Shown here in pieces: positions 8,741 through 58,265 of a DNA stretch of 64,000 bases. The position numbers and the translations under genes were made by a program. The DNA comes from Octopus vulgaris. Taxonomy: Eukaryota. Numbering within the stretch: the first letter of the stretch is position 1; the number at the start of each line of letters is the position of its first letter. The notes beneath the pieces are model-generated. The model saw only the letters and a list, made by a program, of their open reading frames with translations, did not search any database and was not told the origin of the DNA. The stretch lies in NCBI GenBank assembly GCA_951406725.2, contig OX597814.1, positions 3,100,001 through 3,164,000 of the forward strand, in the 5' to 3' direction.

Positions 8741-9838
8741 CAATCCGTGTCTCCAAGTCCTCCAGTGTTCGAGGTTTTGTCTTGTACACCTCCTCTTTGT
8801 GTAACTCCACAGGTAAAAATCACGTAGAGGGAGATCTGCACTTCTCGGAGGCCATTCAGGAGGTCAGCGTCGTCCCATCCAACATCCTGGAAAATGTTAG
8901 TCTAACCACGCACGCATGGTAAGAGCAAAATGGGGTATCGCACTATCCTGCATGAATATCAGGTCACCAATGTTACCCCAGCCAGACACCGTGGGCCACA
9001 CGCAGTTTTCGAGCATCTGAAGAGAGCGATCCGTATTCATGGTGTCACGCAGAAGATATGGGCTCATGACTTTTTGTTGATGTCATTCTGCACCAGACGG
9101 TCACTTTTGGTCGAGCTTGCATCCTCTCAACCGTCAGGTTTGGATCCTCATCACACGACGCCCAGTAAAGGCAGTGGTGACGATTGATGAAACCACCAGC
9201 ATGGAATACAGCCTCGTCACTCCAGACGATGTTTACAAACAATTCAGGCCAATCTTCATGCCAACTTAGCATTAACTCCCCATATTCCATTCTACGGTCA
9301 CAGCCTTCGGGTTTTAGCTCCTTCACGTAATGGGGTTACCACGAACGAAAGTTCAATTGTTTATGCAACACCGTACGTGTATTGTGTGTCTTGTTGGTCC
9401 ACTTCCACGAGCTGCTTGACCTGTTGACTTTTGTGGGCTGCGATTAAACATTTCCGGCACTGTTGCCGCGTTCTCCACTGAACGGGATGTTGCGGGACGG
9501 CCACTTCTTCTTGCATCATTCACAGAGTCCGTGGTCATCAGCTTTGCATGACAACTTTTTAATTTCTCCGGACATAGTGTTGCATGCTTACCTTTCCCTG
9601 CACGCCACCATCTCTGAACCAAAACAATGGAATTCCACACTTCATAGTCTGCTGCTATCTTAGCTCACTCCTGAACAATCAAAGTACCGGCCATCTGGAG
9701 AATAAGAAATAAGACCATAAGGAAATAAGAAATCGCCATTAGTGTTGTCTGTTCAAAAACTGTTTTCGTCATGACTTCCGTGATACTAAAAGTTCAATAA
9801 GTTATTCCTAATGTCTAGTTTACTTTCCACCCACTCTG
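8741..9838 (-). mobile_element. Tc1/mariner DD41D (rosa-type) transposon remnant
   Basis: TIR CAGAGTGGGTGGAAAGT next to TA (9839-40). Frames give RSGRP, IVWSDEAVFH and MQDSAIPHFA...WPPRSADLPLRDFYLW (41-residue spacing). Frameshifted. Confidence 0.85.
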
Positions 9839-9860
9839 TATGTGTGTGTGTGTATATATG

Positions 9861-9900
<40 letters not shown>

Positions 9901-10194
9901 TGTATATATATATATATGTGTGTGTGTGTGTTTATATTTATTTATATATATATGTGTGTGTGTGTGTTTATATTTATTTATATATATATATATTTACACA
10001 CGCACACACATATATATATGTACATTTAAATTAGGCAGCCGTTTTGCCATTAGATATTACAGAGGGTGTTAGAATACCTACAATGCTAGAAATAAGAGCT
10101 AAAGTTCTCTGATACTGCATGTATGTCTATATGTATGTATGTATATATGTGTGTATATATGTATGTATGTATAAATGATAGATACTTTTGCTAT

Positions 10195-10507
<313 letters not shown>

Positions 10508-10574
10508 ATATGAAACCAAGATTGGAATCGTTTGTATATGTTAGAATGGAAAAGTCCATATAAAAGCCCACACA

Positions 10575-10612
<38 letters not shown>

Positions 10613-10926
10613 GCTAACAACATATAATGGTGTGTTGTTAGTGTGTGTAATTATATTCCCGTGTTCTTCAAACAATTAGAAAGTCCATTAACAGCCTTCT
10701 GCTACCATCAGATCAACTTCCGTCACCATCACCATCATCATCCTCATCAACATCATCCTCAGTACCACCGTCGCCACCGTCACCGCTGCCGTTAGATAAT
10801 TATCGCTTCCATATGACAGTTTGATAGACTGTGGCCGCTGCAACATAATGGCTTCCATTTGTCTGCTCTTTAAATCATACTTATCTATCACACCTGTACT
10901 AGAACAGAGGTAGGTAGAAGTAGTAA

Positions 10927-10977
<51 letters not shown>

Positions 10978-11158
10978 CAGTTGTTGGACACCGAAATAAT
11001 TGTTTACCTTTGTTTGAAGTTGTTGCCATCATGTTGTTATTCTTGTCCCTCTCTCGTTTTCAAGTTTGCACACACGCACCACACACGCACCACACACGCA
11101 GCACACACGCATACACACACATATTTATGTAACTGGATACATAGATTGATAGATAGAC

Positions 11159-11201
<43 letters not shown>

Positions 11202-11420
11202 CAATATAAGGGTAGCAAAAAATTCGATAGAAATTTTTTTCGCCACCAGCGGTCCAGTGAGAAAGAGAAAATAGTCACAGACTATATATATATAATTTCA
11301 ACAATATTAAAGAATGGCCCTAATAGGCCATTCGACTCACCAGAAAGAGCAGCCAAACTCAAACCGCTAAATAGTAGTAATTCAGAAATCAAGGAAAATC
11401 AAAAACATTTACCCTAATCA

Positions 11421-11528
11421 TCCTTGGACAATGCATTGTTTCGACGTACTTTTTGGGAAACCAGCCTAATTAAATTAAATTTAATTTAATCAAGTCAATC
11501 TACCAATGGCTCGTCTCATCGGCAAGGA
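11421..11528 (-). ncRNA. Type I hammerhead ribozyme-like motif (U4C core, extended stem II)
   Basis: TCCTTG-CCGATGA-GACG-[about 65 nt]-CGTC-GAAA-CAATGCATTG-TC-CAAGGA. Stem I is 6 bp, stem II 4 bp or more, stem III palindromic, with a GUC cleavage triplet. Confidence 0.8.
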
Positions 11529-11791
11529 AGCCAGGAGGAGTAAATATTCCAGGAGGCAGCCGCATCGATGCTTCGGGAACATATACTTTCTCACTGGACC
11601 GCTTTCTATTGAATTTTTTGCTACCCTTATATTGATTAATTAATGATTTTTTGACTAATTCTGAAATTAAATCAGCAGTTTATATTTGCTGCTGATAAGT
11701 TGTCGCGATTACGGTGGATTTTGAAAATTTAGAGTATAAATTCCCGAGGCATCGATGCGGCTGCCTCGTGGAATATTTATTCCTCCTGGCT

Positions 11792-11898
11792 TCCTGCCGA
11801 TGAGACGAGCCAGTGGTAGATTGACTTGATTAAATTTAATTTAATTTAATTAGGCTGGTTTGCCAAAAAGTACGTCGAAACAATGCATTGTCCAAGGA
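11792..11898 (+). ncRNA. Second copy of the type I hammerhead-like motif (one nt missing from stem I)
   Basis: TCCTG-CCGATGA(11797-803)-GACG...CGTC(11873-76)-GAAA-CAATGCATTG-TC(11891-92)-CAAGGA. Confidence 0.75.
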
Positions 11899-12042
11899 TG
11901 ATTAGGGTAAATGTTTTTGATTTTCCTTTGATTTCTGAATTACTACTATTTAGCGGTTTGAGTTTGACTGCTCTTTCTGGTGAGTCGAATGGCCTATCAG
12001 GGCCATTCCTTAATATTGTTGAAAATATACATATATAGATAA

Positions 12043-12112
<70 letters not shown>

Positions 12113-12152
12113 TTTTGTGATATTTCTGCTGCTTTTTAATAAAGTATTTATA

Positions 12153-13117
12153 TCTCATCTCACTCTATATAAACGGCAGTTTGTCTGTCTGTGTGTCTGT
12201 GTGTCTATCAGGTTGTACCCTCACCCTGACTACGGCTTTCAACCGATTCTGATGAAACTTGACACACACATAGCCCAATGTCATAATTCAAAACTAACGC
12301 AGCGAAAATTTTGAAAAGTTCCCCAGTTCTGAAAAAAAAACGATAAATTCGACATGGGGTCGAGAATCAGAAACACAAACCACAGACTGTCTAGGGGACG
12401 CAACTCGACCTTTTTAACTTTCAACTCCATCAATATCCAGCTACTTGAAGCTATTCCTGGTGATGTCCACGTCAACAAATCTATTGATAGGACAGCAGAC
12501 CCCGCCGAGCTTGCCGATTATCCTGTTGAATTCCTGAATTCACTTGAACCGCCAGGCCTGCCGCCACACATCCTGAAGTTAAAAGTCAGTGCGCCCATTA
12601 TGCTCATCAGGAATTTGGTTCCAGCTAAACAGTGCAACGGCACACGTCTGGTTGTGAAACATTTGCCACCACATTTAATAACGGCCACAATACTTACCAG
12701 TTGTGGGAAGAGAAAGGACGTCTTCATTCCACGCATGCACCTTCAACCGTCGGGCGCTGACCTACCAATCCACTTTAGGCGTTCTCAGTTTCCTGTTAAA
12801 CTCTGCTTCGCAATGTCCATCAATAAATCCCAAGGCCAAATGCTACAAGTCGCTGGGTTACATTTGGGCGAACAGTGCTTCGCCCACGGTCAACTCTACG
12901 TGGGCTGTTCACGCGTTGCGAGGCGCAATGATGTTTTCATGTTTTCGCCCAAAGGGACAGCTAGGAACATCGTATACACAGAAGTATTCGAGTGAAGAGA
13001 AGACATTGCAACCTACACATGCGCCTGCGTTCCCTAGAGGGAATGGACTAGATTGGGATTAGTCGTTGCCTACTAGGGGCTCTTACATACCCGGGCAATG
13101 CCGGGCTATGCTGCTAG
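12153..13117 (+). mobile_element. Non-autonomous Helitron retaining the C-terminal part of the RepHel PIF1-like helicase
   Basis: 5' TC after an A (exact start approximate). 3' GC hairpin cccgggcaatgccggg and CTAG (13114-17) followed by T. Confidence 0.9.
12354..12995 (+). pseudogene. Helitron PIF1-like helicase C-terminal ORF fragment (213 aa)
   Basis: Contains YPVEFLNSLEPPGLPPHILKLK, CNGTRL, RRSQFPVKLCFAMSINKSQGQ and HGQLYVGCSRV. Rep domain and helicase motif I are absent. Confidence 0.9.
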
Positions 13118-13489
13118 TATATATATAATAGTAAGCTAACGGTAGACACGAAAATTGCATTCTAGAGAGCTTAACTTCTCAGCACACTGCTTTATGACAG
13201 TGAAACTGAATACATCCACTCCGCATAAGAGCAGTATCTCAATGCCTTCGGTTTATACGGCATGGAACGAGACAAAGGCTGAAAAGAAGTAGACGCTTGC
13301 TGGTGAACGAAAGAAAATTCAATGAAAAATAGTACCCAGACACACTGCAGCCTGGATACCACTCGCATGTGGACATAAAATGTCACGGCAGATGATGCTC
13401 TGCAAAAAGATCAAAACAAGATTTTGTGACAGATACCTCCAGTAAATAACTCTAGAGCCTATAATGTCAAATGTTACTGTTTATAAATA

Positions 13490-13879
13490 AGGAGTGGCTG
13501 TGAGGTAAGTTCCGGGTTCAGTCCCACTGCGTGGAATCTTGGGCAAGTGTCTTCTGCTATAGCCCCGGGCCGACCAATGCCTTGTGAGTGGATTTGGTAG
13601 ACGGAAACCTAAAGAAGCCCGTCGTATATATGTATATATATATATGTGTGTGCGTGTGTTTGTGTGTCTGTGTTTGTTCCCCTAGCATTGCTTGACAACC
13701 GATACTGGCGTGTTTATGTCCCCGTCACTTAGCGGTTCGGCAAAAGAGACCGATAGAATAAGTACTGGGCTTACAAAGAATAAGTCCCGGGGTCTAGTTG
13801 CTCAACTAAAGGCGGTGCTCCAGCGTGGCCGCAGTCAAATGACTGAAACAAGTAAAAGAGAAAAAAAAAGAGTAAAGAG
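13490..13879 (+). mobile_element. SINE family B
   Basis: Head ggagtggctgtg..ggttcagtccc, body cttgggcaagtgtcttc, internal (TA/TG)n, tail gactgaaacaagtaaaagag. Confidence 0.9.
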
Positions 13880-14618
13880 TATCTGCAAAATACTTTGTAT
13901 TAATTAGTATTAATTGTCCTATCGCCATTACAAAATGATATCTAATCATACAGATTTCTTGAAATTTTTTTTTTTCAGGATAAATGAGCTTAAAGTGCGG
14001 CCTTCATCGAGCTCTTGCTCTGGCGAAACTTTGGCAGTACACGTCCTATTTGAACATATTTCAATTTGATGTTGAACAGATAGGAAATTTCAGGCATTTG
14101 AAGTTATTTAGGAAAAGATTTTGGAAAATGGTTTTGGGCGAGATGTGGGATGGGCGTAGGAATACAATAGCCGTGCAAAATCCTGAGGGCATGTCATTTA
14201 AATGTGCATGTATGTATGCAGTGTACAACAAAGTAGTTCTGAGAAGCAGCGACCAGTGTAAAGGAAGGTGACAGAGAGGGGACACAGCACAGCCCTTACC
14301 AGAAGCCAGAGATCGAAAGGTTTTGCAGAGTCAATCTTTTCTAGTCAGACGGGTCTGCTTCGTTTTCGATGTGGTCTTCAATTTTCGGTGCGAGTAGCGT
14401 CGGCCTTGTTTCAGAATATGTAAGATGTTATTGTTTAGGCCAAGGTAAAGTCTGACCTATGATCAATGACATTCCATACATGACAGTCCAACCTTATTAC
14501 GAACATTTAAAAAAATGAGTTTATTTCATGAGTTTTTCCATTATTTAAAGATGTGACCTGAGGAAGATTTGGCTGGTATTTCGAGCAGATTGAGAAACAC
14601 GTAGACACGCACACTAAT

Positions 14619-14831
14619 CTTTTACTTGTTTCAGTCATTAGAGTGCGGCCAGGCTGGGGCACTGCCTTCAAAATATTTAGTCGAACGAATTGACCCCAGT
14701 ACTTACTTTCTTAAAGTTTGGTACTTATTCTATTGGTCACTTTCACCGAACCGCTAAGTTACGGGAATGTAAGCAAACCAACACCGGTTGTCAGACGGTG
14801 GCGGGGGTCATACACAGACGCAAACATACAT

Positions 14832-14899
<68 letters not shown>

Positions 14900-15026
14900 G
14901 GCTTGTTTCAGTTTCCTTCAAACAAATCTTTTCACAAGGCTTTAGTCGGCCGAGAATTTAAAAGAAGACAACCGCCTTGGATGCCATGCATGGGACTGAA
15001 CCCGAAACCACAGCCACGCCTCTGCC
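14619..15026 (-). mobile_element. SINE family B (diverged)
   Basis: Reverse complement of the family B pattern. Confidence 0.8.
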
Positions 15027-17445: not shown

Positions 17446-18855
17446 TTGCTTGGCATCATTTCTGTCTCGGGAGACAATGGAGTTGCGCATAAAGTAGTCT
17501 AGTCCGGCTTTTATATTTCATGTCCTGATACATTTCCTGCTGTGGCTGTGTAGTCCTATCCTGGACAAACACTCCCTCTGGCAGGTACCGCAAATGTAGC
17601 GAAGACTGTTCCTGGCTGGTTGTAATGCCATAGTCTCTTGTTGACGTCTCTTCTTTTCTTTCCATTTCTCCTCTCTCTCTCTGTCACTCCTTTGTATTCC
17701 CTCTTTTACGGTACGTCGCCATACTCCACGGTTGCCGGCAACTGCCTCCCAACCGCTAATATTGATGTTGCAGACCTTCATGTCCCTTTTGCAAACATCC
17801 TTGTAACGTAAGATCGGTCTACCCACAGACCTAGTACCCCTAGCAAGCTCTCCGTAGAGTATGTCCTTGGGGATTCTGCCATCTTTCATACGGCTAACAT
17901 GCCCAAGCCATCTCATGCGTCTTTGTGTGAGGAGTGCAAACATGCTTGGTATTCCTGCTTGCCTGAGGACATCTTTGTTGGGGATATGATTCTGCCATTT
18001 GATGCGGAGGATTTTTCGGAGGCAGCGCAGGTGAAAGATGTTTAGGCGACGCTCTTGGCGTGTGTATAGCGTCCAGGTCTCACTTCCATAGAGTAGAGTG
18101 CTGAGTACACATGCCTGGTAGATCTTCACTTTCGTGGTCTTGGTCAGCTTATTGTTGTTCCAAGCCCGTTTGGAGAGTTGGGCCATCGCAGCAGCTGCCT
18201 TGCCAATGCGTATATTGAGCTCAGCGTCAAGGGATAGGTTGTAGGTGACGGTAGAGCCCAGATAGGTAAACTTCTCCACCTCTTGTAATCTGTGGTCTCC
18301 AATATGTATGTTTGGGATGTCCGATGTAGCCTGGCCCATGATGTTGGTCTTCTTAAGGCTGATAGCTAAGCCAAAGTCGTTACATGCTTGCTCAAAACAG
18401 TTAATGAGCCTTTGGAGGGCTTCTTCTGTGTGTGTTACCAGAGCGGCATCATCAGCAAATAACATCTCCTTGATCAGGACGTTTCTGATTTTGGTCTTGG
18501 CATGCAGGCGCGAGAGATTGAAGAGTTTCCCGTCACTTCTACTGTGCAGAAACACTCCATCATCTGATGTCTGAAAGGCATGTGAAAGTAAGAGCGAGAA
18601 GAAGATGCCAAACAATGTAGGAGCGAGGACACAACCTTGCTTTACCCCGTTTTTTATTTGGAAGGCGGCTGATGTTGAACCGTTGTGCTGTATGGTGCCT
18701 TGCATGTCATCATGGAAAGACTTGATGATCCTCAGCAGCTTTGGTAGACATCCGATTTTTTGGAGCAGGATGAAGAGGCCTGTTCTGCTTACCGAGTCAA
18801 AAGCCTTTGTTAGATCAATGAAGGCCATATATAATGGCATTTTCTGCTCTCTGGA
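17442..18855 (-). mobile_element. 5'-truncated RTE-clade (BovB-like) LINE with a stop-free RT/C-terminal frame of about 445 aa
   Basis: [48 protein letters not shown] and a C-terminal CxxC...H..KC motif. Short 3' UTR. Inserted in (TA)n. The N-terminus of ORF 17518-18969 is microsatellite. Confidence 0.95.
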
Positions 18856-18857
18856 CA

Positions 18858-18926
<69 letters not shown>

Positions 18927-19115
18927 ATATGTGTGTGTGTGATGTGTGTGTGTTTATGTATATATACATTTTTATTTATGTATATATATATATATATATA
19001 CATTGTTGTATTTGGGGATGGTCAAGTTGCCAGTTTAGCCAATAAAACACACGCACAATATATTTGGTGTTAATTTGCTTCAGCATTATTCTATTTTTTA
19101 CATTAATCGTATTTC

Positions 19116-56701: not shown

Positions 56702-58265
<1,564 letters not shown>

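Follow-up and report, generated by a model that had tools for sequence, protein, structure and literature searches.

Two hammerhead motifs of opposite orientation, found in a 64,000-nt stretch of the Octopus vulgaris genome (contig OX597814.1, positions 3,100,001 to 3,164,000; hereafter the window), are the two arms of a single insertion of a non-coding repeat of about 485 nt. The explanation that we consider probable is that this repeat carries a type I hammerhead and is copied in trans by a Penelope-like retrotransposon (PLE), whose mode of integration accounts for the inversion. The element resembles a non-LTR retrozyme carried by the PLE machinery, and is neither an autonomous PLE nor a MITE.

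Layout of the insertion

The insertion occupies positions 11198..12038 of the window, with both of its 3' ends facing outward into a (TA)n microsatellite. Its left half lies on the minus strand and consists of a 5'-truncated, inverted copy of the hammerhead segment (11282..11587), closed by a 3' tail of about 84 nt (11198..11281); within this arm the left hammerhead (11421..11528) has an intact 6-bp stem I, a long stem II and a palindromic stem III, and a 3'-terminal hairpin, read from the sequence, lies at 11312..11333. The right half, on the plus strand, opens at the inversion junction with its own 5'-truncated start, a partial tail with an internal deletion (11586..11638), and continues with the 94-nt spacer segment of the unit (11639..11732), which many family copies have at 82-98% identity, and with a tail-less arm (11733..12038) that pairs with the left arm and ends at the first 3' end. 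The right hammerhead (11791..11898) has a stem I damaged by a 1-nt deletion; its 65-nt stem II insert (11808..11872) is a G-U-rich and AU-rich hairpin whose pairing is kept across subfamilies, and the right copy of the 3'-terminal hairpin (11987..12009) is common to the superfamily.

The preliminary description of this DNA had noted an inverted repeat of about 285 bp, which is present but longer, namely 307 nt with 292 identities and 2 gaps (11282-11587 versus 11733-12038); one of the 15 columns at which the arms differ breaks stem I. A second, interleaved inverted pair, giving the order A-B-A'-B', likewise exists, but it is the 3' tail of the element, complete on the left (A) and partial, with the internal deletion, in the centre (A'), the two matching over 36 nt at 97% by blastn. 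The order A-B-A'-B' can therefore be read as inverted tail and arm, followed by partial tail, spacer and arm. By analogy with the tail model of PMC11167929, the left-arm tail would mark the second start site of reverse transcription, and the end of the right arm would mark the first.

On the plus strand the motif reads UUCCUG (11791-11796), CCGAUGA (11797-11803), GACG, the 65-nt insert, CGUC, GAA, ACAAUGCAUUGU, C17 and CAAGGA, and on the minus strand UCCUUG (11528-11523) is intact, the core CCGAUGA occupies 11522-11516 and the remainder is as on the plus strand. The core, the stem II GACG/CGUC enclosing its 65-nt insert, and the palindromic stem III had all been described in advance for both arms and are found there, as are the cut positions, with C17 at 11892 (plus) and 11427 (minus) and the predicted cut following each. 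Stem I had been given as UCCUUG in both arms, which holds for the minus arm; the plus arm reads UUCCUG, since a 1-nt deletion has removed a U. The layout is that of a type I hammerhead, three stems round a core and open at stem I, with the plus-arm stem I mismatched. Against the canonical core CUGANGA...GAAA...UH, position 4 is C instead of U in both arms and all other core positions agree; sister subfamilies with U4 have the full canonical core. With so long a stem II, there is no canonical loop 2. A cmscan of positions 9000-15000 against Rfam returned no hammerhead family among 57 matches to E 10, and the RF00163 profile gave 6 matches in the genome among 73 scored candidates, none of them at the locus, in support of the proposal that this is an atypical, Penelope-linked type I hammerhead invisible to standard searches. 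The locus itself is an ordinary insertion and probably a copy in decay, as a same-strand partner is absent and one stem I is damaged.

Several other features share the window. About 300 nt from the element, a 220-aa frame (12333-12995, plus strand) contains a Pif1 2B domain (E 6e-15) and is likely a Helitron helicase fragment, and nested inverted repeats at 13568-14951 (arms 13693-13810/14676-14793 and 13809-13859/14618-14668) are probably a common short repeat present in two copies of opposite orientation. A 485-aa open frame on the minus strand (17518-18975), with an RVT_1 match (E 8e-22) and a C-terminal zinc-finger-like motif, is what we take to be a non-LTR, RTE-type LINE. A 245-aa minus-strand frame (57147-57884) has no Pfam match and presumably resembles the linker between a LINE endonuclease and reverse transcriptase.

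Unit, arrays and conservation of the family

The pattern CCGAYGAGAC-N55-85-GTCGAAAC matches the 2.8-Gb genome 164 times, against 4 matches for the reversed control, and the pattern of the 3'-terminal hairpin matches 5,082 times, some sites being counted on both strands, against none for its control. A DNA search of the genome gave 49 matches (from the best 40 of 2,019 candidates), and a spacer-based pattern gave 109, missed the youngest subfamily and added nothing. Mapping of the window segments onto the loci yields a unit order of tail (84 nt), spacer (94 nt) and hammerhead segment (306 nt), and a natural cut-to-cut monomer in locus L007 measures 486 nt with 36.6% GC. The unit is non-coding and has less than 45% GC, as in retrozymes; the longest frames in circular units span 62-68 codons and differ between the two subfamilies tested, so that a conserved ORF was rejected. 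Long copies extend upstream into another unit (tail, spacer, hammerhead) and not into an ORF.

Tandem units, each with a type I hammerhead, occur at L007 and L272-L277, and the window locus is without a same-strand pair. The youngest subfamily (L272-L277) forms arrays of up to 10 units of 490-494 nt, and several of its copies have A10.1-U11.1 and a GUA cut site in place of G-C and GUC. In nine regions fetched from the hairpin list, the array at L274 has 10 hairpins spaced 492-494 nt apart, with units that are 99.2-100% identical to one another and 68-76% alike to the window element; L272, L273 and L276 are divergent arrays, closed on one flank by the unit end and on the opposite flank by the tail, and L275 is a tandem of C4 copies.

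An alignment of 52 distinct copies has 96.2% of its cells paired, and 11 of its 33 pairs carry changes in both partners, a level reached by none of 500 shuffles, with slid controls at 27-50%; these rows were picked by a regular expression requiring most of the core, 42 of them are closely related C4 copies, and relatedness by itself can let sequences outdo shuffles. Two-sided change affects five of the six pairs of stem I (C-G/U-A and G-C/A-U swaps) and two of the six of stem III (A-U/U-A/G-C); for the youngest subfamily the alignment is off at the stem II pairs of columns 20-22. In the insert hairpin (helix 4) 97.1% of cells are paired, and 12 of its 17 pairs vary on one side only, mostly by swaps from G-U to A-U or G-C. 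Because the 52 rows were core-picked and related, 59 distinct copies chosen only by the 3' hairpin were considered as well: a count on the alignment gives 55 with the full core; all four bases occur at position 7, either C or A at position 17, and either U or C at position 4. Between them, the two alignments supply the covariation and core conservation among paralogs that had been suggested as a check on the ribozyme. On their evidence selection acts on the structure of the hammerhead, and its long stem II stays a hairpin.

Position 4 changed at least twice on a tree of 30 copies from which the core was left out, a tree that is rooted at its midpoint only and may include chimeric rows, and on which three U4 copies are nested among C4 copies with 99/98 support. 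A second C4 family (L160, L162, L167, L172, L175-L178) has a different, GC-richer and possibly branched stem II insert of ~67-72 nt, with AUCAC/GUGAU as stem I and ACAAUUGU as stem III; its blastn similarity to the unit is no more than chance, it forms an inverted pair at L172, and it has U4 relatives at L250, L252 and L255. Other U4 hammerhead families, in which stem II spans 48-77 nt, were found at L108:90-640, again an inverted pair, at L131, L132 and L135, and at L244, L245 and L267. Seen in several families, a long stem II is a common feature of this genome, and C4 is a state that recurs. Among viroids a natural U4C variant is known, and the change lowers activity in vitro according to PMC3088659; C4 would be a tolerated core state, probably slower, rather than new chemistry. 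For a possible 38-nt GT-AG intron in the stem II insert, no matching joint was among those listed for the contigs of four presumed-RNA runs.

Cleavage and the mode of insertion

In the monomer, the active fold is predicted to lie about 3 kcal/mol above an inactive fold that pairs the core with stem III, and folding of the sense monomer has z = -5.0 versus -2.1 for the antisense. Stem III is predicted not to fold as a hairpin in the monomer and to form a duplex of -15.1 kcal/mol; such duplex-only folding would suit cleavage as a dimer (PMC6765202). C4 copies lie a median of 2.7 kcal/mol from the active fold, versus 1.1 when they are swapped to U (n = 43), and U4 copies a median of 2.1 kcal/mol, versus 4.1 when they are swapped to C (n = 19). 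The notion that C4 locks the monomer is weak, since mispairing between core and stem III occurs with either base alike (34 versus 33 of 43, and 19 versus 19 of 19).

The 5' ends of genomic copies were collected from loci chosen by the hairpin only (the first 100 of 112 matches, and chromosome-1 loci from the first 100 of the 5,082-match list), giving a pooled set of 155 ends and 44 run-throughs in which units of tandem arrays are not independent. Among the copies at risk, 15 of 134 end at 0 to +9 of the predicted cut versus 1 of 119 at -10 to -1 (Fisher p = 0.0005), and with 20-nt windows on either side the counts are 31/150 versus 9/119 (p = 0.003). A scan of 351 boundaries with 20-nt windows placed the best ones at +1 and 0 of the cut, and 3.7% of 300 constant-hazard simulations, scanned more coarsely, gave any boundary equally extreme. 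This cliff is not significant in C4 copies alone (4/26 versus 0/22, p = 0.11), nor in the chromosome-1 loci from the 5,082-match list alone (4/75 versus 0/71, p = 0.12). The excess of ends runs from +1 to about +35, and stalling of the reverse transcriptase or microhomology is a possible cause of it, as this is where a hairpin is predicted in the RNA. The pile-up of ends just behind the predicted cut is likely the footprint of cleavage in vivo, and the hammerhead of the family likely cuts its RNA, as judged from genomic copies. Contigs of four presumed-RNA runs cover parts of the element; contigs cannot show strand, ends or cleavage. As for related systems, hammerhead cleavage in the Poseidon element PAc of Anolis needs protein and is dispensable for insertion in vitro, and no RNA ends were seen at its cut (PMC11167929); for Xenopus retrozyme dimers it is reported that one of nine cleaved and eight did not (bioRxiv 10.64898/2026.07.22.740005).

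The mode of insertion can be read from 61 distinct sites that match the arm over 100 nt or more with an identity of at least 88%, a sample that was chosen by similarity and is biased to long copies. Of these, 32 are inverted and 29 are not; 49 have at least one full hammerhead, five have one per arm, and one has two on the same strand. Inversion breakpoints vary among the sites. Among the 32 inverted sites, 27 have the unit end facing outward on one side and the tail end on the other, mostly in (TA)n; the two 3' ends of the family are fixed, lie in (TA)n and are separated by about 85 nt. The PLE arrangement described in PMC8557442 is the same and combines partial tandems with a 5'-truncated copy in inverted orientation and a tail on one side; the octopus family shows all of these, together with a microsatellite target. 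The behaviour reported for the PAc enzyme fits as well: both strands of the DNA are extended, and synthesis begins at a pair of sites within the RNA that mark the limits of the tail (PMC11167929). That the two motifs face opposite ways is likely a consequence of PLE-type integration.

The proposed cycle would begin with transcription of tandem loci, whereupon two hammerheads of the same strand would pair through their palindromic stem III, possibly aided by protein as in PAc, and would cut after GUC or GUA to release monomers, which may circularise. A PLE protein with reverse transcriptase and GIY-YIG domains would nick both strands at (TA)n, and cDNA synthesis would begin internally, once at the unit end and once at the tail end. 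Joining of two 5'-truncated cDNAs would produce the inverted pair, and synthesis that rolls round a circle or along a multimer would produce the arrays.

Candidates for the helper were sampled through PF01541, so that the survey covers the clades this profile detects. At least 148 GIY-YIG matches were found in the genome (150 scored of 6,136 candidates), many of them in 781-aa open frames. The 781-aa protein has a GIY-YIG domain, an RVT_1 score of 28.9 bits, just under the cut-off of 29.6, and a cysteine-rich linker that we read, against PMC8557442, as being of Neptune/Nematis type. At L136-L140 this PLE is abundant and near-identical, with an upstream frame of up to 479 aa; it ends in (TA)n, reads in sequence as having a U3-A8 minimal hammerhead about 80 nt before that end, and was likely active recently. 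It is the leading candidate helper, and its pairing with the unit is a guess, because unit and PLE loci share no sequence found. An autonomous PLE sharing the unit was found neither among 205 loci (tblastn with one PLE protein) nor among 76 PLE loci (blastn), where only nested or adjacent pieces occurred. The preliminary description had proposed to look for an adjacent RT/GIY-YIG ORF at other loci; none collinear with the unit was found at the loci tested, and the element is without the RT and GIY-YIG ORF of an autonomous PLE.

At L149 an autonomous PLE seemed to share the 3' end (81% over 75 nt), but the common piece is a stub of 57 nt from the young subfamily, which sits inside the TA tail of an older PLE whose hammerhead is of U3-A8 type, and the candidate was rejected; the PLE ORFs near L008 and L214 adjoin the unit and are not collinear with it. 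At L183-L211 lies an older PLE family with a U3-A8 hammerhead, whose stem III is the palindrome ACCGGU and whose two 3' ends are separated by about 45 nt. The reverse transcriptase frame of the window (17518-18975) gave no tblastn match to the 781-aa protein.

Competing explanations and known relatives

The same mobile element might keep the hammerhead fold as a structural or protein-binding signal that barely cleaves, with C4 as a sign of relaxed catalysis and the 5' ends as a product of reverse transcriptase stalling. This is a minority reading, to which we still give some weight: C4 is fixed in whole subfamilies and A10.1-U11.1 occurs in the youngest, the monomer is predicted to prefer an inactive fold, PAc can insert in vitro without cleavage (PMC11167929), and the hairpin predicted at +1 to +35 could stall the enzyme. 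However, variation obeys the catalytic rules of hammerheads, position 7 being free and position 17 only C or A, the core is otherwise fixed in 55 of 59 copies that were not chosen by it, and 5' ends drop most sharply at +1/0 of the cut rather than at other predicted hairpins. We think it improbable that an autonomous PLE still to be discovered left these copies as 5'-truncated pLTR remnants, in which case they would not be an independent non-autonomous family. PLEs are mostly 5'-truncated and leave solo pLTRs (PMC4209133, PMC8557442), and a small share of the 5,082 hairpin matches was inspected; against this, long copies enter another unit upstream and not an ORF, arrays reach 10 units of 492-494 nt, and the 62-68 codons of the longest circular-unit frame are not common to the subfamilies.

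The inverted pair had also been proposed to act as a built-in switch, in which an antisense arm regulates the ribozyme. The full motif is present in both arms at the window locus, and transcripts started at the centre would escape the antisense arm; yet both arms point outward, and therefore an antisense copy precedes the ribozyme on either strand, and in read-through RNAs of both strands stems I, II and III have a predicted probability of 0.0. Since such RNA is predicted to bury the ribozyme on either strand, the switch would always be off, and the pair is better seen as a by-product of insertion. With a full motif pair in only 5 of 61 sites, breakpoints that vary and arms that differ at 15 of 307 columns, including one that breaks stem I, a role as a switch is unlikely, and as a selected device it is hardly to be expected. 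Least credible of all is a MITE or foldback DNA element whose hammerhead likeness is incidental: a 307-nt inverted repeat in a TA context would suit it, but 29 of 61 sites are not inverted, arm lengths vary so that terminal inverted repeats are not fixed, 5' truncation is polar, tandems occur, and the covariation is one-strand and rich in G-U pairs; barring fixed ends of the inverted repeats, the polar truncation by itself refutes this reading. The PLE-copied repeat remains the preferred explanation.

The octopus element is best classed as a non-LTR retrozyme or a non-autonomous PLE, strict membership failing on U4 and slightly on unit size. It shares with animal non-LTR retrozymes, whose mobilisation by PLEs has been proposed (PMC7229834; bioRxiv 10.64898/2026.07.22.740005), short non-coding units of low GC content, type I hammerheads, and the occurrence of arrays and monomers; the likeness rests on genomic copies, and expression as circular RNA is a feature of the known retrozymes. 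The described retrozymes have units of 150-450 bp and a stem II of ~4 bp with a small loop, whereas the octopus family has slightly longer units of 467-493 nt, a stem II of 58-78 nt, C4 in some subfamilies, and the full PLE signature of tail, head-to-head inversion and (TA)n. Hammerheads of PLE pLTRs (PMC4209133) are likewise of type I with a palindromic stem III suited to dimers, and opposite-strand pairs 100-700 bp apart were already reported there in Schistosoma, but their helix II is 6-8 bp, their named core variant is U3-A8 rather than C4, and the 12-nt palindrome of stem III sets the octopus family apart.

PAc (PMC11167929) has a hammerhead upstream of two tail-separated 3' ends and AT-rich targets, and its extension of both strands would account for the inversion in the octopus family; PAc is, however, autonomous, with an ORF starting at stem II, whereas the octopus unit has no ORF and its 5' ends cluster behind the cut. 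PLE tails are described as 30-40 nt long, compared with ~85 nt here. Non-autonomous Chlamys elements such as MRC1 (PMC8557442) also have PLE-type units that form pLTRs and multicopy head-to-tail insertions, but most are described as having no canonical hammerheads, and they generally resemble the 3' end of an autonomous partner, of which none was found for the octopus unit. The viroid U4C hammerhead cited in PMC3088659 is a natural C4 case, less active in vitro and active enough in vivo for infectivity; it is a viroid variant, whereas C4 in the octopus is fixed across subfamilies of two unrelated repeat families. In the literature searched, neither the unit family nor C4 long-stem-II PLE hammerheads are described, although Lunse et al. 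(on PLE hammerhead variants), Repbase, Dfam or supplements may list such elements, and the parts of a cephalopod repeat annotation that were available (PMC13282606) make no mention of ribozymes.

The interest of these observations lies in the family, with its long structured stem II, toggling at position 4, 5'-end cliff and PLE signature, and not in the locus. That Rfam missed a long-stem-II locus reveals a gap in how hammerheads are searched for; in one published search on the core alone the permitted spacer was 7-17 nt, and Naiad 'half cores' are split by 35-50 nt (PMC8557442). It is conceivable, though at present more doubtful than probable, that several retrozyme families of the octopus genome replace the contact between loops I and II with a structured stem II of 50-80 nt, serving as a protein-binding or tertiary module, tolerate C4, cut themselves in vivo, and depend for insertion on a Neptune-type PLE whose priming of both DNA strands uses two start sites on the RNA. 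If this were so, the 5'-end cliff would be a genomic record of the in-vivo cleavage of PLE-type hammerheads that RNA-seq of PAc failed to show, and the tail and inversion signature would tie the spread of retrozymes directly to the PLE machinery. Whether PLE-type hammerheads cut in vivo becomes testable with the 5' ends of genomic copies as a read-out, and near-identical U4 and C4 subfamilies are natural controls for this question. What moves animal retrozymes becomes testable as well, since the retrozyme-like arrays of this genome bear the tail and inversion signature of PLEs.
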